DNA from: Patescibacteria group bacterium
Lineage (GTDB): Bacteria; Patescibacteriota; Patescibacteriia; 2-01-FULL-39-33
Length of the DNA stretch: 64,000 bases
Direction of reading: 5' to 3'
Assembly (NCBI GenBank): GCA_041645075.1
Contig: JBAZQS010000003.1
Coordinates: forward strand, 6,710 to 70,709
Below are positions 4,672 through 52,246 of the stretch, one piece after another; position 1 is the first letter of the stretch; each line of letters starts with the position of its first letter. A program made the translations under genes and the position numbers. A model generated the notes under the pieces. The model did not search any database and was not told the origin of the DNA. It saw nothing but the letters and a program-made list of their open reading frames with translations.

Positions 4672-5114
4672 ACTTTTGTTTTTTTATTAATAATTAAATT
4701 CCTCCTAAATTAAACTTTCAACTTTAAACAATTAGGGTTAAACTGCTTTGAGCAATTCGACTTTAGAAACCACTAAATTGATTAAAGCGCGCAATGCAAT
4801 ATGTAAAATAAGTTATTTTTTAAAATAAAAAAACGCCTCAAAAAATCAGGCGCTTAACGTTTTATTGGATTGACTCGCATTATTCGGAAGGAAATTTCAG
4901 CTTGTTTTTCTACCGACATTTGCTAAAAGTAATTTTTTATTCCCCCCTAAAAATGCTAAACAACCTTATCCCCCTTAAACATTACTGCCTTATTTTATCA
5001 CCGCTCTAAAATAGGCGCAATGGCATAAGCGGTGGATAACTTTTAATTTATTTCAGCTAAATTTAAAATATCCCAGTAATAAGTGTTTATGAGATGGTTA
5101 CAAATCAAAATCTG

Positions 5115-5672
5115 CTATCTTTTATATAAGCCGGTCAAGACCGCCTGCTCAATGACGCGATCACCCAGCGCTTCTTTAAATTTATTCTTGTCTGTATTTT
5201 CGTCCAAAACCAGATTATCGCTTAAAGCGTAAAGCTTGAAATTATAGCGATGAACGCCCGAGGGCGGACAAGGCCCGTCATAAGTAGAGCGTCCAAAATC
5301 ATTTATACCCACGGCCGCGCCACTGGGAACGCTATTTTCGGTAATTTCTCGCGTATCGGACGAAATATTCCAAACCAGCCAATGGACAAAGTCGCCACTG
5401 GGAGAATCCGGGTCATCCACCATCAAGGCCAGACCCTTGGCGCCATCGGGAACACCGCTGATGGCCAGCGGCGGATTAACATTTTTCCCGCCACAAGTGT
5501 ATTGGGCAGGCAGGGATTGATTCGGCTCAAAGGCCGGACTGGTTAATTTCATATTGCCTAATTTAAAATTTTGAATTAAATTTTTATGATTGGCAGACCT
5601 TTGGAAAATAAAAAATATTCCGGCGATTACCGCCAACGCCGTAATAATTAAAATGATTGTGTTTTTTTTCAT
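5115..5672 (-). CDS. YbhB/YbcL family PEBP-like protein with N-terminal membrane anchor
   Basis: DPDSP...FVHWLVWNI...GPCPPSGVHRYNFKLYAL motifs of the PEBP family. Confidence 0.7.
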   Translation of the reverse strand: MKKNTIILIITALAVIAGIFFIFQRSANHKNLIQNFKLGNMKLTSPAFEPNQSLPAQYTCGGKNVNPPLAISGVPDGAKGLALMVDDPDSPSGDFVHWLVWNISSDTREITENSVPSGAAVGINDFGRSTYDGPCPPSGVHRYNFKLYALSDNLVLDENTDKNKFKEALGDRVIEQAVLTGLYKR

Positions 5673-5680
5673 ATTTGAAT

Positions 5681-6895
5681 TTATTTAATAATGCCGCCAC
5701 CTAAAACCTCATCACCATTATAAAAAACCGCGGATTGGCCGGGCATAATGGCGCGCTGGGATTTTTTAAACTTTACAGTAAGGAATCTCCCACCCCCTGC
5801 CCCGACTTGGCGTCGGGACGTCCCCCTCTGGCAGGGGGACAAAATAATACAATTGGCGGCCCGGCCGTGATAGCGGATCTGTACTTTACATTTTAAAGGA
5901 AATTTCGGTTTCTTGCCAATCCAATTAATATTATGGCAAAAAAACTCTTTTTGATAAATAGCGGAATTATTTTGATTTTTAGTGACAATCAATAAATTCT
6001 TTTTGCGGTCAAAGCCGCAGACATACCAAGGTCCACCCGATAGGCCGATACCGCTTCGTTGGCCAAGGGTATAAAGCGGGAGGCCTTGATGGGTACCCAA
6101 TACAGACCCCTCCCCAACCCTCCCCTTGTAAAGGGGAGGGGGTTTAATATGCGGCCTCCCCTTATAAAAAATGGGGGAATAAATAATAATTTTTCCGGGT
6201 TTTAATTTCAAATATCTTTTCAAAAAATCATAATGGCTTTCGCCCACAAAACAAATCTCTTGGCTGTCCTTTTTATCATGAACCGGCAGTTTAAATTTTT
6301 TGGCCAATTTCCTGACTTCGCTTTTTTCATAATCCCCCACTGGAAACAGCAAATACTTTAATTGCGATTGCCCTAAATTGTACAAAAAATATGATTGGTC
6401 TTTATTCTCATCTTTTCCACGCAATAATTTTAATTTTGGATTTTGGATTTGTTTGGGATTTAGGATTTGGGATTTAGGATTTTCCGCCAACAGGCGGACA
6501 TAATGCCCCGTCGCCAGATAATCGGCGCTAAAAATCGTTCTAACTTTTTTCAGCAAAAGGTCAAATTTTATAAATTTGTTGCAGGCCACGCAGGGATTCG
6601 GCGTTTTGCCTCGGCCGTATTCTTTGAGAAATTCATCCACGATTATTTTTTTAAATGCCGGGCCGAAATTTAATTTATGAAACGGAATATCTAAAATATC
6701 CGCCACCCACTTGGCCTCATTAAATGATTCTAAACTGCAACACCGATTTTCACCGTATATCTTGCCGGTAGGAAACCAAAATTGCATAAACACACCCACC
6801 ACCTCATAACCCTGTTCTTTTAATAAGGCCGCGGCCACCGAAGAGTCCACGCCGCCGGACATAGCGACCACAACTTTTTTACCATTATCTTTCAT
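5681..6895 (-). CDS. mnmA: tRNA-specific 2-thiouridylase MnmA (carries two in-frame repeat-element insertions)
   Basis: VVVAMSGGVDSSVAA PP-loop, CCSLE, GHYVR, GQS AVFY...GGG C-terminus. 404 aa against ~360 typical. The extra peptide PPPLYKGRVGEGSV is encoded by the cctccccttgtaaaggggagg hairpin repeat at ~6100-6180. A second insertion at ~5790-5835 is encoded by a cccgacttggcgtcggg hairpin. Confidence 0.85.
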   Translation of the reverse strand: MKDNGKKVVVAMSGGVDSSVAAALLKEQGYEVVGVFMQFWFPTGKIYGENRCCSLESFNEAKWVADILDIPFHKLNFGPAFKKIIVDEFLKEYGRGKTPNPCVACNKFIKFDLLLKKVRTIFSADYLATGHYVRLLAENPKSQILNPKQIQNPKLKLLRGKDENKDQSYFLYNLGQSQLKYLLFPVGDYEKSEVRKLAKKFKLPVHDKKDSQEICFVGESHYDFLKRYLKLKPGKIIIYSPIFYKGRPHIKPPPLYKGRVGEGSVLGTHQGLPLYTLGQRSGIGLSGGPWYVCGFDRKKNLLIVTKNQNNSAIYQKEFFCHNINWIGKKPKFPLKCKVQIRYHGRAANCIILSPCQRGTSRRQVGAGGGRFLTVKFKKSQRAIMPGQSAVFYNGDEVLGGGIIK

Positions 6896-6906
6896 AAATA
6901 TTATTT

Positions 6907-7090
6907 GAGATGGTTACAAAACTATTTTAGCTATAAATTTAGGACTTTTTGAGCGAGACAAGGAGGGCCAGCAAAAAGATCTGAGCCGCCCCGACGTAAC
7001 ATCGGGGCGGTGAAAATCTTTTTGCGCCAGCCTGACGCAGTCGCAGCCAAAAAGGACAAATTTAGAGAAATATAGTTTTGTAACTATCTC
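6907..7090. mobile_element. MITE-like element, copy 1 (19-bp TIR GAGATGGTTACAAAACTAT ... ATAGTTTTGTAAC(T)ATCTC)
   Basis: Terminal inverted repeats read directly. The internal ~145 bp is ~80% identical to copy 2 in inverted orientation. It contains a gccccgacgtaacatcggggc hairpin. Confidence 0.6.
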
Positions 7091-7091
7091 A

Positions 7092-7976
7092 TTAAGGAAT
7101 TACAACCTCAAGGGCTTTCGGCAAGACCTCTACCTCTATTTCCTTGGAAATTTTCAGGTAATCGCCGTCTATCTGGTAGGAATTCCAGCCACGATTCAAA
7201 TAAATCTTAAAATAATCATTATCCAAGGTAAAAATGTGTTTTTTCGGCTGTTGGCGCCAAAGCAAATAAAAAAGGTCGCTGATTAAAGAAAGCAGGGTTT
7301 TATTGGTAAAAACATAAAGATTTAAAATGCCGTCTTGCCAGTCAATATTCTTTTTCAATTTCAAGCCGAAATAATTTATGGCGTTAAAAATAACCAAACT
7401 ATTGCCCTTGACCCAAAATGTTTTATTTTGCGTTTTGATTTTAAATTTAATCTTTCTAATCTTAATTTTATTAAAAATAAATCGCCATAAATAGCCAAAA
7501 TAACCAAACTTATTTTTTAAATCGCCGGGGGTGCTGGCAATAACATGGGAAATATAGCCGATTGAAAGCCCCACCAAAAAATAATGATTCTGGTTTATTA
7601 GGCCAACGTCAATTTTAACGGTTTTTTCCGGTTGAGCCAATAACTTTATCGCTTGCTTGACGGTCAGAGGAATTCCCAGATCCGTGGCCATAACATTGGC
7701 CGAACCAAAAGGAATGATGCCAAGCGGGGCTGATAATTTATTATTTAAAATTGTCTTCGTCGCCACCTTAACCGTGCCGTCACCGCCCACCGCCACCACC
7801 AACTCCGTTCCCAAAAAATTATGCCCCGAAATCGCGGTTTCAAAATTATCATTTAAATAAAACAAATCAACTTGGTAGCCAAGCTCTTCAAGCTTATTTC
7901 TCACTAAGCCCTCAATATCCTGCTTGGTCATCAGGCCGGCGGATTTGTTGAAAATTACTAAAGCAATTTTGGTCAT
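7092..7976 (-). CDS. Diacylglycerol/lipid kinase catalytic-domain protein (YegS/BmrU-like)
   Basis: VAVGGDGTV, IIPFGSANVMATDLGIP motifs of DAGK_cat. Confidence 0.6.
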   Translation of the reverse strand: MTKIALVIFNKSAGLMTKQDIEGLVRNKLEELGYQVDLFYLNDNFETAISGHNFLGTELVVAVGGDGTVKVATKTILNNKLSAPLGIIPFGSANVMATDLGIPLTVKQAIKLLAQPEKTVKIDVGLINQNHYFLVGLSIGYISHVIASTPGDLKNKFGYFGYLWRFIFNKIKIRKIKFKIKTQNKTFWVKGNSLVIFNAINYFGLKLKKNIDWQDGILNLYVFTNKTLLSLISDLFYLLWRQQPKKHIFTLDNDYFKIYLNRGWNSYQIDGDYLKISKEIEVEVLPKALEVVIP

Positions 7977-8850: not shown

Positions 8851-9025
8851 AGATGGTTACAAAACTATATTTCTCTAAATTTGTCCTTTTTGGCTGCGAC
8901 TGCGTCGGGCGGGCGCAAAATGATTTTCACCGTAGCCCCGCTATGGCTCAAGTCATTTTGCTGGCCCTCCTTGTCTCGCTCAAAAAGTCCTAAATTTATA
9001 GCTAAAATAGTTTTGTAACCATCTC
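8851..9025. mobile_element. MITE-like element, copy 2 (inverted relative to copy 1), overlapping the stop codon of the 9024..10715 gene
   Basis: GAGATGGTTACAAAACTAT at 8851 and ATAGTTTTGTAACCATCTC at 9007-9025. Confidence 0.6.
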
Positions 9026-10715
9026 ATTGTATATTCTTGTCGTCTTCCGATTTTGGATTAGCCGTAAAGCTCACGGGTTTTTTCCCTAAAGCGGTTGATA
9101 AGCTTATGGGCGGTTCGCTAATTTCTAATTTTTTTTCACTAATAATGGCCTGCTCGTTTTTTAACTCGCCTTTTTGATTGCCGGCCCGAAATTTAATCAA
9201 ACAATCTTGGCAGAAAACCGGCCTAATTCCGTCGGGTTTGAAATTAACCGTGGTCGCCACGCCGCAAGAAGAGCATTGAACCGTATATTGTTCCGGATTA
9301 GAAATATTTTTTTTGTTTTTCTTTTTCAAGTCCTGGTTAAAATTTTGGCTTTGAGGCGGACTGGGCAGCTGACGGTTAAAATTTTCTGTCCGGTCTTTGC
9401 CGCCGACCATTTGCACCACTTTATCGCTTAAATCAACCCCGCTCCAACGATTAATTTTCTCCTCTACTTCCGCCTTCGGATTGGCATATCTCTCGCGTGA
9501 AACCCGTATCACCTTCTCCGCGCTATCAGTGATAAATTCATCATATAGGGGCGGCAAGGTTGTCGCCGAAAATGGGTCGGAAGCCACGCCGTCAATCATC
9601 AATTTCAAATAAATATGATAGGCGGGCAGGCTGACTAAGTCCTCCTCAATAAAGGTCGGGGTAAATTCTTTGACTAATTCTTCCGCGTCAGAAGCGCCGA
9701 CCCGAAAGCCGATTAACGAGCCCACATTGCCGAATACGGCGTCGGAAACCTCCTCGGGCAGCTGTTTTATGTATTGATGGGCAATAATTAAATTAAGACG
9801 ATATTTTCTGGCTTCTGATAAAATATTAGAAAAACTTTCATTGGCAAAATTCTGGAATTCATCCACATAGAGATAAAAGTCCTGGCGCTCCAGCTCCGGT
9901 ATGTCAACCCGGCTCATGGCCGACAAATATAATTTCGTCACAATCATTGAGCCCAATAACTGCATGGTATCTTCGCCAATTCTGCCTTTTGATAAATTTA
10001 AAATCAAAATTTTCCGGTTATCAATTATTTCTCTTAAGTCAAAGGTTGATTTCACCTGGCCGACAATATTCCTGATTAAAACATTGGACAAAAATTGCCC
10101 GACTTTATTTTGAATCGGCGAAATAACTTCCTGCAAAACGCGGTCATTCCACTGGGTATATTCATTGGTCCAAAATGACTTAACGACCGGGTCTTTGATT
10201 TTTTCCACGACTTTTCTGCGGTAATCCTTATCCACCAGAATTCTCATAATACCCAAAAGCGTGCTACTCGGATAGTCCAAGAGCGCCAAAATCGCATTTC
10301 TTAAAATATATTCCAATCTCGGGCCCCAGCTATCGGCAAATTGTTTTTTAAATACACCCACCAAGCCGGAAGCAATGAAATGTTTGCTGTTTTCATCAAC
10401 GGCCTCTAAAATATTAAAAGCCACGGGATGTTCGGTATCGGCCGGATTAAAATAAATGAGATCATTTATCCGGTTTGGTGGAATGAAATTCAACAGCTTT
10501 TCCGCCGTATCGCCATGCGGGTCAATATAACAGCAGCCGTCGCCCCTGATAATATCGGAAATAATCATATTTTCCAGCAGACAGGTCTTACCCATGCCGG
10601 TTTTGCCAATAATATACATATGGCGGCGACGGTCGTCTCTTTTTATGCCAAAGGTTTTTCTTTCGCTGCGAAAATTGGTTTCGCCAAAAATTGTTATATC
10701 TTTATTGTCGGTCAT
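9024..10715 (-). CDS. VirD4/TraD/TrwB-like P-loop coupling ATPase (soluble, no TM) with C-terminal zinc ribbon
   Basis: Walker A GKTGMGKT, YIDPHGD (compare TrwB DPKGE), Walker B LYVDEFQNF, IIAHQ. C-terminal CSSCG...CQDC. Confidence 0.5.
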   Translation of the reverse strand: MTDNKDITIFGETNFRSERKTFGIKRDDRRRHMYIIGKTGMGKTCLLENMIISDIIRGDGCCYIDPHGDTAEKLLNFIPPNRINDLIYFNPADTEHPVAFNILEAVDENSKHFIASGLVGVFKKQFADSWGPRLEYILRNAILALLDYPSSTLLGIMRILVDKDYRRKVVEKIKDPVVKSFWTNEYTQWNDRVLQEVISPIQNKVGQFLSNVLIRNIVGQVKSTFDLREIIDNRKILILNLSKGRIGEDTMQLLGSMIVTKLYLSAMSRVDIPELERQDFYLYVDEFQNFANESFSNILSEARKYRLNLIIAHQYIKQLPEEVSDAVFGNVGSLIGFRVGASDAEELVKEFTPTFIEEDLVSLPAYHIYLKLMIDGVASDPFSATTLPPLYDEFITDSAEKVIRVSRERYANPKAEVEEKINRWSGVDLSDKVVQMVGGKDRTENFNRQLPSPPQSQNFNQDLKKKNKKNISNPEQYTVQCSSCGVATTVNFKPDGIRPVFCQDCLIKFRAGNQKGELKNEQAIISEKKLEISEPPISLSTALGKKPVSFTANPKSEDDKNIQ

Positions 10716-10746: not shown

Positions 10747-12327
10747 TCAAACCGTGGGTAAGTTTGCTGGGGGTGTCGGTGGCTTTCGCGGCTCGCCTCG
10801 ATTCGGCGAAGCGGGTGGTGCCGGCGGTTCAAAAATATTTTGTTTTCCTTCGGTGGGCAAAGCCAGGGGTGACGGAGCCGTCGGAATATGTGGCCTGGCC
10901 CCAGCATACGCGGGGCTAACCCCAGCATACGCGGGGCTCGCCACTGGCCCTTCAAAAACCGGCCTGGTTTCTTTCTTGACAATAAAATCGCGATTGCCAA
11001 TGGGGAGCCGGGTTGGCGGCACCACTTTCTTGCTCTCAATTTTTTCCACCATCGGCGCTTTGACGGTCATCACCGGGAAATGCCAAAGCGAGGCCAATTC
11101 CTCATTATTTAAAAGCATATTAGCCACGTTATCGCCATAATAATTGGTTCGTTTTATATAATACCTTAAAATTCTATTCTGTCTGTAAGCCACTCTTTTT
11201 TTTACCCGAAAATAATCCACGCTTGTTTTTGTTCTGGGGCCGGGCTTAAAGCCATTGGCATTGCTCACGCTAAACTGCTTGATTGAACCGATAATGGCGG
11301 CTACGCCCCGGCCTTTATTAAAAACCCCTTGTTCGGCCAGATAAACCAAACGGAATTTAACTCTAAAAGGGTGCTTGGCAAGTTTTTTCTGGATATTTTC
11401 CAAAAGCAATCTATCGCCCGGCGACATATTGAAAAGCCGAATCGTATCTTCCTTTTTCTTTTCTACTTCACCGGTCGCGCTCATTATACTGGTCAATAAA
11501 TTAACGCCTTGGGCCACCGCATTAACGGGTGCGTTGAGAATTTTATCCCCGAAAGTTGAGGGAGCGGTATAAATCTGGCCGCTAAATTCCTTAACAATTT
11601 TTTTTGCTTTTTCCCCCCACCCCGGCTCCGCCGGCAGAGGCGTAACCACCAGTTGCAGCCAGGCCTGTTCACCGGGCCCAAGCCGGCTTAAAATTTCCAA
11701 TAATCCGGCCATTGGGTCAAGAAATGTTTGGGTTAAAGTATGTTCAAATTCGGGATAAGTCCTGATTGGATAAGGATAGTCCTTGGTTAAAATAAATTCC
11801 GTGCCCCATAAATTATATTTTTCATTGGGAAAACGGAGGTGGGCATAATCCTGCGCGTAGTCCTCCACTTCGGTAATTTCCGCGTCCGGATATTGGGCAT
11901 AGATGGCGGCCTCGGCCAAGTCGCGAAGGTGGCTTGGCGTCCTGATTAAAAATTGAATATAGCCCTCTAAGCTTACAACTTCAAAAGAAAAACTTTCTTG
12001 ATTTTTTCCGGTCCAATATCTTTCTATTAAATTGCCGCTTGTTTGAGCGCCGGCCAAAGCCGCGAATATATTTTCTACGGCTTTTGGCGTCTGTTCGTTA
12101 TTTTTAGGAATATCAACGGCTAATAGGACGTGCTGCCATTTGCCGGCATATTGGCCCTGACGAGCGTCTAACCAGACCCGATACATAACAACGGTAAGCA
12201 AAATTAAAAAAATAACCCAGCCGCCGCCCAGAAATAATTGCCGGGCGATGGTCACCGGATCCTGCGAGCCAAAAACCGAAAATCGCTCCCACCAAGAAGC
12301 CAGGTCTAAGTTGAATTCAATATTCAT
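10747..12327 (-). CDS. Membrane-anchored hypothetical protein (1 N-terminal TM) with Pro/Ala-rich C-terminal repeat PAYAG; probably co-operonic with the VirD4-like ATPase
   Basis: TM GGGWVIFLILLTVVMY. Tandem DNA repeat ccccagcatacgcggggct x2 at ~10902-10945. Confidence 0.45.
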   Translation of the reverse strand: MNIEFNLDLASWWERFSVFGSQDPVTIARQLFLGGGWVIFLILLTVVMYRVWLDARQGQYAGKWQHVLLAVDIPKNNEQTPKAVENIFAALAGAQTSGNLIERYWTGKNQESFSFEVVSLEGYIQFLIRTPSHLRDLAEAAIYAQYPDAEITEVEDYAQDYAHLRFPNEKYNLWGTEFILTKDYPYPIRTYPEFEHTLTQTFLDPMAGLLEILSRLGPGEQAWLQLVVTPLPAEPGWGEKAKKIVKEFSGQIYTAPSTFGDKILNAPVNAVAQGVNLLTSIMSATGEVEKKKEDTIRLFNMSPGDRLLLENIQKKLAKHPFRVKFRLVYLAEQGVFNKGRGVAAIIGSIKQFSVSNANGFKPGPRTKTSVDYFRVKKRVAYRQNRILRYYIKRTNYYGDNVANMLLNNEELASLWHFPVMTVKAPMVEKIESKKVVPPTRLPIGNRDFIVKKETRPVFEGPVASPAYAGVSPAYAGARPHIPTAPSPLALPTEGKQNIFEPPAPPASPNRGEPRKPPTPPANLPTV

Positions 12328-12371: not shown

Positions 12372-13559
12372 TTATTCGGTCGCTGATTCGGCGAGAACAT
12401 CTTTTCCCACCAATTCATATCGGCCGCCCTTTTCTTTTCTGATGTCTTTATTATTCATCAAAGCCAGATAAATGGTGGACTTCTTCACGTTTCTTTTTTC
12501 CAAAACCTTATCAATAATCTCTTCCTTGGTCAGGGAGCCGTATTCCTTCAATAAATCAGCCACCACCTCGCTCACCGTGCCCGGTTTGTAGCCCCACTCG
12601 CTTAAAGCATAAATTCCCCGTCCCACTAAAATATACTTATCGTCAAGAATCAATTCATTATGAACCGTGGCCGGATAAGCGATTTTTTCGTCAAATTTCG
12701 TTTCATTGATGGCCTGGGCAATCTCGGTAAAATGCATGGGTTTGCCGAATTTTTTTAAGACCAAATATATTTTATCATTAATTTTCCTGGGCTGGACCGT
12801 ACCCCAAGAAACCAAGCCCCACTTATCAAAAAGGTCGCGCTTAACCTTGCGGCTGACGCGCAGATAGCTTTCTAAAATCCGGTCCACATCTTCATCGGTC
12901 ACTTCCAAAAAATTGATGATGGAAAGAATTTTTTCCTTATTTTGATTATAGAATTCAGAATTTTTAAGCTTGTCTAAAAGTTCCTTCAGATTAAGCGACT
13001 CGCCCGCCCCCTCAATGATTTTCACCATCTCATTTATGACCTCTTTTAAAAGTTCGGTATTGGCCGAGCCCGATTTCCACAGGTGATTAAAGTCCTTGTC
13101 TTGTTTGACCTTATTAATATTGTCAGAAAAAATATGTTCGGCCAAAAAGAGCAGGGCGGATTCGCCGCCTTGGTGAGTATCTAAATAGTTAAGCAAATTT
13201 TCCAAGAAAAATTCTTCCTCCATTATGCCGCCATATTGCTCTAATAATTGGCTCACCACATTTTCCGCTTCTTTGATTTCCGCGCGCAATTCCTCTAATT
13301 CCTTTAATTTGCGAATGCTTAAACCTTCAATCTGTCTTACTCTTTCCCGGGTAATGCCGTAAATTTTACCGATTTCTTCAAGCGTGTGTTTTTGGTCAAA
13401 TTCCAAAGCAAAGCGACGTTTGATAATATCCCTTTCCTTGTCGCTTAAATGGGAAAATAAAACATTCAACGTTTCCACCGGATTAAAGCGAGCCACGCTG
13501 TCCTGAAATTGATTTTTTCTCACTTGGTCTAATATTGACATATTATAATATAAAAACAA
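12372..13559 (-). CDS. Sigma-70 region-4 HTH plus C-terminal HARE-HTH domain protein (transcription factor)
   Basis: N-terminal TLEEIGKIYGITRERVRQIE (sigma70_r4). C-terminal GRGIYALSEWGY (HARE-HTH/RpoE-delta-like). Confidence 0.5.
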   Translation of the reverse strand: MFLYYNMSILDQVRKNQFQDSVARFNPVETLNVLFSHLSDKERDIIKRRFALEFDQKHTLEEIGKIYGITRERVRQIEGLSIRKLKELEELRAEIKEAENVVSQLLEQYGGIMEEEFFLENLLNYLDTHQGGESALLFLAEHIFSDNINKVKQDKDFNHLWKSGSANTELLKEVINEMVKIIEGAGESLNLKELLDKLKNSEFYNQNKEKILSIINFLEVTDEDVDRILESYLRVSRKVKRDLFDKWGLVSWGTVQPRKINDKIYLVLKKFGKPMHFTEIAQAINETKFDEKIAYPATVHNELILDDKYILVGRGIYALSEWGYKPGTVSEVVADLLKEYGSLTKEEIIDKVLEKRNVKKSTIYLALMNNKDIRKEKGGRYELVGKDVLAESATE

Positions 13560-13773
13560 TAGAGAAAAATAGAAAAAATTATCTAAATTAAGATAAAATT
13601 AAACTAATCTATTTTTATAATATAATTATATCAAGAAAAATTAGTTTTGTCAAACGACTATTAAACCCAAATTGGGGAAAAATAAAAACCCCCATTTTTT
13701 TAAATTGAGATTGCTTCCACCGCTTTCGCGGGGGTAAACTATTCTCGCAATGACAAAGTGGGAGCGGTTTTTC

Positions 13774-14706: not shown

Positions 14707-16535
14707 GTTATTGTTTTTTTTCTAACCCCATAAAGCCATCTATTCTGAAAGGGCCGCCAGCCACTGACTAATCGTAAAAATTGTCTAGTAATGGTAATGG
14801 CGGAAAACATCGAAACAAGAATACCTATGGCTAGGGTTAGGGCAAATCCCCGAATAATACTCGAGCCAAACCAGTACAAAACAACGCAAGTTATTAAAGA
14901 TGAAACATTTGAGTCGCGAATGGAAAACCAGGCGCGATGAAAGCCCTCTTTTACGCCGGCGGCCAAGTCCTTGCCGGCGCGCAGTTCTTCTTTTAGCCGT
15001 TCAAAAATAAGAATATTGGCGTCCACGGCCATGCCGACCGAAAGAATAAAGCCGGCAATGCCCGCCAAAGTTAAAGTGATGTGTAAAAATTTGAAAAGCG
15101 CCAGAGCAATTGTGGTATAAATAAATAAGGCGATGACCGACAAAACGCCGGGCAGACGGTAATATAAAATCATAAAAATCACCACTAACAACAAGCCGAA
15201 CACACCCGCCTGCAAGCTTCTTTGGACCGACTCGTTGCCTAAGCTGGCGCCGACCGTGGTCTGCGAAATCAAATTTATGGGCACGGGCAGAGCGCCGGCA
15301 TTTAATCGCTGGGCCAATAATTTGGCCTCTTGCGTGGTAAAACTGCCGCTAATAACCGCCTTGCCCGATAAAATCGGCTCATTGACCCTGGGAATGCTAA
15401 TGGGCGAGCCGTCCAAAAAAATGGCAACCGGCTTACCTACATTCTTAGTAGTAATATCGGCAAACAATTTCGCGCCCTCATCGTTGAACTCTAAACCCAC
15501 TTCCGGCACGCCGGAATTCGGGTCAAATTCAACATTTGCCTTTTTTAATTGCTGGCCGGTTAAGCCCGTGTTTTTCCATTCCGAATTAATTTTTAAGCCC
15601 AAATCCGCCGCGGTCTTGGTTTGAAATAAGATGTGACGGACATCAATTTCTTTATTATCCCCTTCGCCTCTTTCCGCTTCTTTTTTGATAATATGATAAC
15701 CGAATTGCGTCTTGACCAAGTTGGGATAAATTTCTCCCACTTTTAATTTATTAAAAGCCACGTCGTCAAATTCCGGCACGAAAGCGCCTTTTTTTACGCC
15801 CTGATACAATCCGCCATTATCTTTACTGCCCGAATCATCAGAATACTGCTTGGCCAGTTTCGCAAAATCAGCGCCCGCTAAAATTTGCGGTAAAACGGCT
15901 TGCGCTTTTTCCTCAATGGCTTTATTTTCCCGGTCTAATTGCTGTTGCTCTGACGGCGTTAATTGGCTGGCCTCCGGATTTTCTTCCTTAAATTCCAATA
16001 ACGGCGTCTCGCCAATCATTTTAATCGCCTGATTGACATCATAAACGCCAGCTAATTCCACAATCACGCGCCAACTGCTTCCCACTTGATTGGTTTGCAC
16101 CAATGGTTCGGAAACGCCCAAAGCATTAACGCGGCGTTCAATCACATCTCTGACCCCGCCCAAAGCATCGGCCCGCTCGCTTGGGTTAATTTGCGAGACA
16201 TCGGCATCATAAACCAAGTGCGTGCCACCCAATAAATCCAAACCCAAACTAAAGGGCAGGCCGTAATTAATTAAGTCAATTTCTTTAATATTTTTAAACT
16301 TTAGGCCTTTGGTATTATCTAATGGGCTCTTTTCAATTTTCGGCCAAATCCGCCAATCGCTGACTACGGGAACAGTTGATAAGCCCTGGTCTAATTTTTG
16401 GGCGACGATATTTTTAAAGCCGAAAACATCTATGAAAAAAGTAAAAATAAATAAAATTACGATGCCGAAAATAAGCCAACGGAGCTTGCCCCTTGGACCG
16501 GGAGTAAAAAAATTTTGAAATGGATTTTTTGCCAT
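14703..16535 (-). CDS. secD: Protein-export membrane protein SecD with embedded parvulin (PrsA/PpiC-like) domain
   Basis: LGLDLLGGTHLVYDAD and LPVPINLISQTTVGASLG (SecD). The internal segment FAKLAKQYSDDSGSKDNGGLYQGVKKGAFVPEFDDVAFNKLKVGEIYPNLVKTQFGYHIIKKEAERG closely parallels the B. subtilis PrsA parvulin core (...[17 protein letters not shown]). Confidence 0.85.
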   Translation of the reverse strand: MAKNPFQNFFTPGPRGKLRWLIFGIVILFIFTFFIDVFGFKNIVAQKLDQGLSTVPVVSDWRIWPKIEKSPLDNTKGLKFKNIKEIDLINYGLPFSLGLDLLGGTHLVYDADVSQINPSERADALGGVRDVIERRVNALGVSEPLVQTNQVGSSWRVIVELAGVYDVNQAIKMIGETPLLEFKEENPEASQLTPSEQQQLDRENKAIEEKAQAVLPQILAGADFAKLAKQYSDDSGSKDNGGLYQGVKKGAFVPEFDDVAFNKLKVGEIYPNLVKTQFGYHIIKKEAERGEGDNKEIDVRHILFQTKTAADLGLKINSEWKNTGLTGQQLKKANVEFDPNSGVPEVGLEFNDEGAKLFADITTKNVGKPVAIFLDGSPISIPRVNEPILSGKAVISGSFTTQEAKLLAQRLNAGALPVPINLISQTTVGASLGNESVQRSLQAGVFGLLLVVIFMILYYRLPGVLSVIALFIYTTIALALFKFLHITLTLAGIAGFILSVGMAVDANILIFERLKEELRAGKDLAAGVKEGFHRAWFSIRDSNVSSLITCVVLYWFGSSIIRGFALTLAIGILVSMFSAITITRQFLRLVSGWRPFQNRWLYGVRKKTIT

Positions 16536-16759
16536 TTATTATTGGCGGTGAATAATTTACTTTAAACTATTATAGTTTAGCAAAAATTCTCTTGATTTGC
16601 AAGATTTAAATTTTAATTAAAAGAGGGAGCGGCAGGCTGTTGTATAGCGCGCTCCCTTATTAACAAGCAATTAATTTTATGAAACGGCGCGAGACCTGGA
16701 TTCTCTGGGGGTCTGGAGTTTCTCTAATAAGATTAATAATCGTGGTTTAATTTGTCGCT

Positions 16760-52174: not shown

Positions 52175-52246
52175 TACCGCCGCGGGGAATCGAACCCCGG
52201 TTTTCTCCGTGAGAGGGAGATGTCCTAGCCGCTAGACGATGGCGGC
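52175..52246 (-). tRNA. tRNA-Glu (anticodon CUC), 72 nt, no encoded CCA
   Basis: GCCGCCATCGTCTAGCGGCTAGGACATCTCCCTCTCACGGAGAAAACCGGGGTTCGATTCCCCGCGGCGGTA. Anticodon stem TCTCC/GGAGA, loop CTCTCAC (U33, CTC, A37), T-loop TTCGATT. Acceptor stem G1·U72 with an A7·C66 mismatch. Confidence 0.65.

Follow-up and report, generated by a model that had tools for sequence, protein, structure and literature searches.

A parvulin domain, most likely circularly permuted, inserted in the P1 loop of SecD in a Patescibacteria group bacterium

The 64,000 nt stretch described here, referred to as the window, is taken from the Patescibacteria group bacterium assembly GCA_041645075.1 (contig JBAZQS010000003.1, positions 6,710 to 70,709 of the forward strand). 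The window holds a genuine, intact secD-secF pair of a Parcubacteria-group (Patescibacteria, or Candidate Phyla Radiation, CPR) bacterium, and the SecD open reading frame (ORF) carries a parvulin-type peptidyl-prolyl isomerase (PPIase) domain in its P1 loop (Table 1). With the TIGR01129 model the SecD ORF scores 389.2 bits (cutoff 244.4) and amino acid (aa) positions 97–586 are covered. After the first transmembrane (TM) helix, the order of domains is P1 base, P1 head and a C-terminal 5-TM domain, according to Pfam and to alignment with the solved structures 3aqp, 5xam and 5mg3. The P1 base closes with a conserved strand, PLLEFKEE, of which L180, E181, F182 and K183 are invariant in the alignment of relatives (alignment A1). 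SecF positions D213 and R247 align to D637 and R671 of Thermus thermophilus SecDF, which together with D340 (TM4) are essential proton-pathway residues of that protein (PMC5974789). Judged by alignment, the SecDF motor residues of the window pair are intact. The charged N-terminus followed by TM1, as well as homology to the solved SecDFs, would place the P1 loop on the extracytoplasmic side. The P1 head of SecD is a mobile, preprotein-binding domain with an amphiphilic cavity that contacts preproteins (PMC5974789).

The parvulin domain occupies aa positions ~194–305, between the SecD_1st and SecDF_P1_head matches. PF13616 (Rotamase_3) matches aa 186–285 with 84.8 bits and E = 8.4e-24 (cutoff 22.5), and PF00639 (Rotamase) matches aa 197–286 with 72.4 bits and E = 6e-20 (cutoff 21.7). 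A first-pass annotation, made from the nucleotide sequence and its ORFs, had proposed a parvulin domain embedded in SecD, and both of the Rotamase profiles it pointed to are found to match inside the protein. The peptide it quoted is present at aa 224–290 of the 610 aa ORF (window 15666–15866) and the VRHILF sequence at aa 299–304 (15624–15641). The segment is not the canonical P1 head lacking support from a parvulin hidden Markov model, as the P1-head profile matches separately at aa 322–418. Alignment with SecD of other phyla identifies the segment as an insertion. Two separate blocks of T. thermophilus SecDF (3AQP) can be aligned, residues 34–141 with positions 96–208 of the window SecD and residues 160–425 with positions 325–590; Deinococcus radiodurans and Escherichia coli SecD also align in two blocks. 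Relative to T. thermophilus SecDF the window SecD has ~100 residues net extra, situated at the passage from P1 base to P1 head.

The likeness to Bacillus subtilis PrsA, also claimed at first pass, is borne out: 34 of 79 aligned residues (43%) are identical between the insert and the B. subtilis PrsA PPIase domain (PDB 1zk6). The best PDB sequence match of the insert is B. cereus PrsA 6vj6 (E = 3e-13). In a full-length AlphaFold2 (AF2) model of SecD the mean predicted local distance difference test score (pLDDT) is 80 and the insert is the most confident part, with values of 86–91. Modelled alone (aa 188–312, AF2, 36 homologues), it gives a pLDDT of 96.7 and a predicted template modelling score (pTM) of 0.89, with the core at pLDDT 97–99. 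A Foldseek search of the PDB with this isolated model returns top matches that are all PPIases, e.g. 8hm4 (TMq 0.71), B. anthracis PrsA 6vj4 (85 columns, root-mean-square deviation (rmsd) 1.1 Å) and CsPinA 2rqs (76 columns, rmsd 1.8 Å). By sequence and by predicted structure the insert is a parvulin.

The type given to the domain at first pass, PrsA/PpiC, is supported. This applies to the PPIase domain alone, which is PrsA/SurA-like; the protein as a whole does not belong to the PrsA family. No lipobox is present at the SecD N-terminus, which is TM1, and no Pfam match of the NC or SurA_N type is found in SecD. The PrsA equivalog models score far below their cutoffs (NF002846, 54.1 bits vs 361; NF002827, 51 bits vs 343) and match the PPIase part only. 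The protein is a SecD family member with a variant parvulin domain, read below as permuted, and is not a PrsA.

Table 1. Positions of secD-secF features in the window and of related free-standing genes on other contigs
Feature	aa	Position (nt)	Strand	Basis and remarks
secF coding sequence (CDS)	310 aa	13774..14706	(-)	4-nt overlap with secD; PF02355, E = 2e-60; aligned to 3aqp residues 454–728
secD CDS	610 aa	14703..16535	(-)	embedded parvulin; end coordinate counts the stop codon; ORF list, TIGR01129, Pfam
SecD TM1	14–37	16425..16496	(-)	AF2 helix H14–37; positively charged N-terminus ahead of TM1
SecD P1 base (N-terminal segment)	129–186	15978..16151	(-)	PF21760 SecD_1st, E = 5e-16; aligned to T. 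thermophilus SecDF 34–125
Parvulin core	194–289	15669..15956	(-)	helix 1, helix 2, S-x-D loop, β2, helix 4, β3, β4 (GYHIIKK); no N-terminal β1; translation verified
S232-x-D234	232–234	15834..15842	(-)	equivalent to Pin1 S111/C113, Asp as in PrsA and Par10; S/D in most fusions examined
His281 (GYHII)	281	15693..15695	(-)	second active-site His; equivalent to Pin1 H157 and SaPrsA H239 (PMC2678132)
Hairpin loop, β4 to putative relocated β1 (GEGDNK)	290–295	15651..15668	(-)	DSSP on models; would-be site of the canonical C- and N-termini
Putative relocated β1 (EIDVRHILFQ) with His301	296–305	15621..15650	(-)	translation; H301, I302, L303 at least 90% conserved
Flexible linker, parvulin to P1 head	306–319	15579..15620	(-)	pLDDT falls to 67 at residues 311–320; length and sequence vary in relatives
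SecD P1 head	322–418	15282..15572	(-)	PF22599 SecDF_P1_head, E = 5e-30, profile positions 18–114; T. thermophilus SecDF from residue 160
SecD TM2–TM6 proton-conducting domain	421–589	14769..15275	(-)	PF02355 SecD_SecF_C; alignment to 3aqp
SecD Asp505 codon	505	15021–15023	(-)	aligned to T. thermophilus D340; invariant in alignment A1
Free-standing lipoprotein gene, contig L081		8001–9095		
Free-standing lipoprotein gene, contig L082		8001–9074		after secD (5104–6909) and secF (6920–7825)
Free-standing lipoprotein gene, contig L083		5234–6307		

A canonical parvulin has the order β1-α3-β2-α-β3β4 with a sheet order of 3-4-1-2 (PMC3057832). One conserved His on β1 and another on β4 are linked by a hydrogen bond (PMC2678132). 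The canonical linear order with β1 at the N-terminus is not found in the insert: nothing β1-like lies ahead of helix 1, where the strand found is PLLEFKEE of SecD itself, and a β1-like strand is present after β4. In every single-unit fusion checked, i.e. each with one parvulin unit, PF00639 matches from profile position 8 and PF13616 from position 15. DSSP assignments on both the full and the isolated model show β4 (279–289, GYHIIKKEAER) hairpinned to a 10-residue strand (296–305), which has a pLDDT of ~99 in the isolated model; the hairpin loop is longer in some relatives (P0349, P0373). The dip in confidence at residues 311–320, which marks the domain boundary, falls after this trailing strand. 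In addition, β2 is still predicted as a strand, though β1 is its sole canonical partner and no N-terminal β1 exists.

Profile comparisons point in the same direction. When the trailing strand is placed ahead of the core, the PF13616 score increases from 88.4 to 93.6 bits and that of PF00639 from 76.7 to 80.5 bits. The re-permuted insert is covered by PF00639 from profile position 1 and Pin1 chains align to it over the entire PPIase domain, while a shuffled-strand control shows no gain. With hhalign, comparison to a canonical parvulin profile gives two order-breaking matches, the core to template positions 12–114 (E = 5e-39) and the trailing strand to the template β1 (E = 5.5e-5, probability 66%). 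The VRHILF sequence had been described at first pass as a further strand. A strand is present there, but on the profile and model evidence it is most likely not an extra one; it most likely represents the domain's own β1 moved C-terminally, i.e. a circular permutation. The permuted insert is read here as a variant of the parvulin fold rather than as a non-member. The chain would enter at helix 1, run through β4, turn back by a short hairpin and end with the β1 strand EIDVRHILFQ, an arrangement that would preserve both the 3-4-1-2 strand order and the hydrogen-bonded H281–H301 pair. As a consequence of the permutation, the chain would enter and leave the domain close to the substrate cleft, at what was the β1-helix 1 loop, whereas in PrsA and SurA it does so at the canonical termini.

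Equivalences of residues with Pin1 and PrsA were derived from sequence alignments and from bioRxiv 10.1101/2024.09.05.611430. H301 of SecD corresponds to the Pin1 H59 position. H301, S232, D234 and H281 are all present in the window SecD and are at least 90% conserved across the relatives in A1. Among 253 single-unit fusions, both His281 and His301 are found in 241, His281 with another residue at position 301 in five, the reverse in none, and other residues at both positions in seven (Fisher p = 7e-11, uncorrected for phylogeny). Single His replacement is reported to destabilise parvulins and double replacement to be tolerated (PMC2678132), and the pattern of joint loss at positions 281 and 301 fits this report. 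Joint replacement (N or L with Y; F with T) is seen in two separate single-unit clades, P0280–P0284, which are close to P0162, a divergent relative, and P0055/P0057. In P0280–P0284 most of the S-x-D motif is lost as well, and the domain is retained.

A further arrangement is displayed by four SecD sequences with two parvulin units, P0091, P0101, P0104 and P0273 (685–698 aa), from Falkowbacteria RIFOXY genomes. In these the permuted core and its trailing strand are separated by a nested canonical β1-first parvulin that has both His residues, while the outer core and trailing strand have each lost theirs (GYNII and SRIL, respectively). The nested unit of P0091 matches PF00639 from profile position 1.

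The distribution of the fusion was followed among the 120 best relatives of the window SecD (56–95% identity) and the 120 best relatives of P0162, which has 48% identity to the window sequence. The architecture is found in all but one of the former and in all of the latter. Source names of the relatives are Falkowbacteria, Buchananbacteria, Uhrbacteria, Moranbacteria, Parcubacteria group and Patescibacteria group, and the best match is a Falkowbacteria SecD with 95% identity. Because the ~240 listed relatives but one, down to 48% identity, retain the architecture, it is under long-term selection. The exception, P0090 (500 aa), has flanks with 66% identity to the window SecD but lacks the parvulin segment; at the insert site it reads LLEFKEADPA, then about 25 aa that appear unrelated, then WLDTKLTGQQL. 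P0090 represents either a secondary deletion or a problem of assembly or gene calling. The P1-head match of the window SecD lacks the first 17–19 profile positions; loss of these through the insert was considered and rejected, as the match of the insert-less P0090 also begins at profile position 19.

A scan of genome contigs with the TxFGYHII motif showed six SecD fusions among the 80 matches listed, and those that carry a taxon are Patescibacteria; as the motif is generic to parvulins, the scan gives no basis for a claim that the fusion is exclusive to the group. NCBI and JGI label the fusion relatives as plain "SecD", with one fragment labelled "peptidylprolyl isomerase, partial". In the open-access and preprint literature, a scope that leaves out most subscription journals, no description was found of a SecD-parvulin fusion or of a circularly permuted parvulin. 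Thus the domain hits of the fusion are already visible in databases and the permutant is apparently undescribed.

A homologue search for the insert covered 1.8 billion representative proteins. The nearest relatives outside SecD are SurA-like proteins with 2–5 tandem parvulins. One of these, P0131, consists of SurA_N and two parvulins and is colinear with the insert, showing 46% identity over 112 aa. The alignment crosses the junction between parvulin 1 and parvulin 2 of P0131, "...GFHIIQLIERRGE-KINVRHILIRLK" ("RGE-KINVRHILIRLK"), and the strand aligned past the junction is β1 of the second repeat. Both P0131 and P0122, the nearest relatives outside SecD, carry a SurA_N domain and the window SecD does not. 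From these alignments the insert most likely stems from a tandem-parvulin (SurA-like) gene, of which a slice was taken out of register so that it contains the core of repeat n and β1 of repeat n+1. Duplication followed by truncation is a classical route to a circular permutant.

The P1 and parvulin segments are also found together in free-standing proteins. Sixteen clusters of 349–375 aa proteins (P0123–P0126 and P0397–P0408) show a signal peptide, a P1-base-like segment, a parvulin and a P1 head, and have no TM2–6 domain. Their parvulin is permuted likewise (GYHIIKK..GEGD..IDT[S/R]HIL). A lipobox Cys was detected by regular expression in 14 of the 16; of the remaining two, P0125 has a near-lipobox, LTTGC, that escaped the expression, and P0124 has a TM anchor instead. 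In GCA_053992435.1 the free-standing gene lies directly 3' of the secD(fusion)-secF pair, and in a second assembly it is two genes further on. The source annotation of these proteins is "hypothetical protein" or "parvulin-like PPIase". The family looks like a partial duplicate of the SecD outer loop that has turned into a stand-alone PrsA-like foldase. Here P1 and parvulin stay together although the proton motor is missing, and this suggests that the P1 head may be the chaperone partner of the PPIase, the role of the NC domain in PrsA. Within the 64-kb window neither another parvulin nor a free-standing paralogue is encoded.

PrsA of B. subtilis and other Firmicutes is the closest solved relative of the insert, sharing the His/Asp/His set and having Phe where Pin1 has S154. 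This post-translocational foldase, too, is tethered to the membrane, on whose trans side it receives Sec substrates. PrsA is, however, a separate dimeric lipoprotein with a canonical β1-first parvulin inserted in an NC (SurA_N-like) chaperone domain, whereas in the window the host is the SecD P1 loop, the strand order appears permuted, and lipobox and NC domain are missing. The free-standing paralogues do have a lipobox but carry SecD P1 in place of the NC domain. With SurA and PpiD the resemblance is one of sequence, SurA-like tandem-parvulin proteins being the closest relatives outside SecD; SurA and PpiD differ in that they associate with the translocon non-covalently and have parvulins in canonical order, while the window SecD would have a single out-of-register repeat covalently built in. 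The Sec "dome" of Mycoplasma pneumoniae (Mpn444/Mpn436/Mpn489 with SecDF-SecYEG) is likewise found in a genome-reduced organism of wall-less or monoderm type and has parvulin PPIases over the Sec exit, touching SecDF. Its components are separate, large lipoproteins which make up a chamber, in contrast to the ~110 aa insert in SecD, sometimes accompanied by a small lipoprotein paralogue, of Parcubacteria. Canonical SecD/SecDF proteins (T. thermophilus 3AQP, D. radiodurans 5XAM, E. coli 5MG3) share TM1, P1 base, P1 head, TM2–6, the SecF partner and the essential Asp/Arg residues with the window pair, but have ~18–35 residues where the window SecD has ~135, and no solved SecDF contains a parvulin.

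A second segment that has no counterpart in T. thermophilus SecDF lies at SecD aa ~40–95 (window 16250–16420), where TM1 and the GG motif are separated by ~55 extra residues. For this segment, which has no Pfam match, two short helices and a β-hairpin are predicted at low confidence (pLDDT 61–72). On the 5' side of secD is a 220-nt spacer with a GC-rich hairpin and, after it, a run of T (GGGAGCGCGC...GCCGCTCCCTCTTTT; window 16620–16700, minus strand). This structure would terminate the upstream gene, which codes for 160 aa and has no Pfam match; because the preceding gene would end there, secD-secF probably has its own promoter.

The insert is most likely a translocon-tethered foldase or holdase, in agreement with the first-pass suggestion of a foldase on the translocon accessory subunit. 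Unfolded chains leaving SecYEG would be captured by the P1 head, and the adjoining parvulin would bind the captured chains and catalyse Xaa-Pro isomerisation. The insert would then replace or supplement a separate PrsA, SurA or PpiD. A single polypeptide would accomplish what PrsA, PpiD/SurA or the M. pneumoniae Mpn444 dome proteins, each anchored separately, bring about by touching SecDF or SecYEG non-covalently. Work on other bacteria supports this idea: for E. coli, docking of the SurA parvulin domains on the SecDF P1 head is predicted (PMC9987972), PpiD-YfgM associates with SecYEG (PMC9643414), and PrsA-like PPIases contact SecDF-SecYEG in M. pneumoniae (bioRxiv 10.1101/2025.04.25.650208; 10.1101/2024.09.05.611430). 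Taken jointly, an intact secD-secF, a circularly permuted PrsA/SurA-type insert derived from a slice of a tandem array, and a role as translocon-tethered foldase or holdase form the best explanation of the data, and one that is considered probable.

Several points weigh against this explanation. The inter-domain geometry of the full-length SecD model is unreliable (pTM 0.52). The gain upon re-permutation is modest, 4–5 bits, and the hhalign match of the strand has just a 66% probability; the placement of the strand at the β1 site comes from DSSP, pLDDT and sequence/profile arguments and not from a measured superposition. The co-variation of the two His ignores kinship, the co-losses amounting to at least two independent single-unit clades and the two-unit group. 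The foldase role is drawn from a PPIase activity that is predicted from sequence and models, and a separate PrsA or SurA was looked for, and not found, within the 64-kb window alone. Catalysis is not universally required, because P0280–P0284 keep the domain without the His pair and most of S-x-D. The permutation also removes the β1-helix 1 loop, a contributor to substrate binding in some parvulins (PMC2678132).

Other explanations differ widely in probability. There is hardly any chance that the fusion is an artefact, i.e. the product of chimeric assembly or of a wrong gene call, or a pseudogene in decay. The sequence does derive from assemblies of uncultured organisms, but the 610-codon frame is unbroken and followed by secF, SecDF motor residues as well as parvulin residues are conserved, and the architecture recurs in ~240 independent protein clusters, drawn from assemblies of NCBI, JGI, ENA and Logan and in some cases lying on contigs 0.5–1.3 Mb long; a chimeric assembly was rejected on account of this recurrence. 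It is quite improbable, though less so, that the parvulin is not permuted but is an incomplete domain without β1, with VRHILF as a remnant of the second repeat (linker or P1 head) or with PLLEFKEE supplying β1. Colinearity of the insert with the tandem-parvulin junction is in keeping with this, so that historically the strand was β1 of the next repeat, and its location was inferred from models rather than measured on coordinates. However, modelled without PLLEFKEE the insert is a confident single domain with a confident strand hairpinned to β4, and the dip that marks the domain end lies past that strand. Conservation of H301-I302-L303 and the co-variation of H301 with H281 are also contrary to a mere remnant, and in a 3-4-1-2 sheet β2 would have no partner once the central strand is missing, yet the models predict it to be a strand. 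PLLEFKEE was rejected as the source of β1: it contains no His, it is conserved in all SecDs, including insert-less ones and T. thermophilus SecDF, and the insert folds confidently without it.

The leading alternative, though rather unlikely, is that the insert has the parvulin fold but works without catalysis as a chaperone, docking or structural module, e.g. one that widens the substrate surface of the P1 head or modulates its swing. The P1 domain of SurA and the parvulin domain of PpiD are examples of such non-catalytic parvulin modules. The two clades that have lost both His and keep the domain, the first mostly without S-x-D, favour such a role, as does the degenerate state of the permuted unit in the two-unit relatives. 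The loop deleted by the permutation aids substrate binding in SaPrsA, and Bailey et al., in the account of them given there, hold the His pair to be mainly structural (PMC2678132). Nevertheless, 241 of the 253 single-unit fusions, the window SecD among them, keep H301, S232, D234 and H281 and the hydrophobic pocket residues, a conservation stronger than a purely structural role needs. Where the permuted unit decays in the two-unit proteins, the nested canonical unit has both His, as if catalysis must persist.

A wider proposal is put forward as speculative. P1 combined with a permuted parvulin may constitute an unrecognised type of extracytoplasmic foldase, in which a PPIase on a proton-driven swinging head would couple capture, isomerisation and release to the proton-motive force; the lipoprotein form would possibly take PrsA's role in Parcubacteria, and the fusion would serve as "Rosetta-stone" evidence for parvulins at the SecDF P1 head generally. 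If true, folding would include an energised step on the side of the membrane that lacks ATP. How proteins exported by SecYEG are handed over to folding factors on that side is still debated, and recent work infers non-covalent contacts only. A lineage-wide covalent fusion is independent evolutionary evidence for the link between SecDF and parvulins, and marks the site where both activities meet. It may also explain how genome-reduced Parcubacteria manage without conventional PrsA or SurA, if such absence holds. A domain of ~125 residues or a lipoprotein of ~350 residues offers a compact test model. The apparent out-of-register tandem slice would furthermore be a textbook-style case of permutation by duplication and truncation.

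Other genes in the vicinity of secD-secF display the following features. A 395 aa protein is encoded at 12372–13559 (minus strand) that contains sigma-70 region 4 (E = 5e-16) and HARE-HTH only, with no regions 2 or 3. Ahead of this sigma-like gene is a promoter-like site (13653..13625, minus strand) with a perfect 12/12 TTGACA-17-TATAAT and an extended TG. Contig L081 has a complete sigma-70 gene in the equivalent place 3' of secF. Just downstream of secDF and the sigma-like gene are two adjoining genes. The ORF at 10747–12327 (minus strand) codes for a 526 aa protein with an N-terminal membrane segment, a long Pro-rich tail and no Pfam match, and that at 9024–10715 (minus strand) for a TrwB/TraG-like type IV coupling-protein ATPase of 563 aa with a C-terminal treble-clef zinc finger. 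An Rfam search over window positions 1–64000 shows one RNA gene only, a tRNA at 52175–52246 (minus strand). Nearly all genes in the first 22 kb of the window are on the minus strand and the GC skew is negative throughout this part. The gene content (GAPDH, PSP1, EF-Ts, S2) and a GC content of 42% fit a small Parcubacteria genome.

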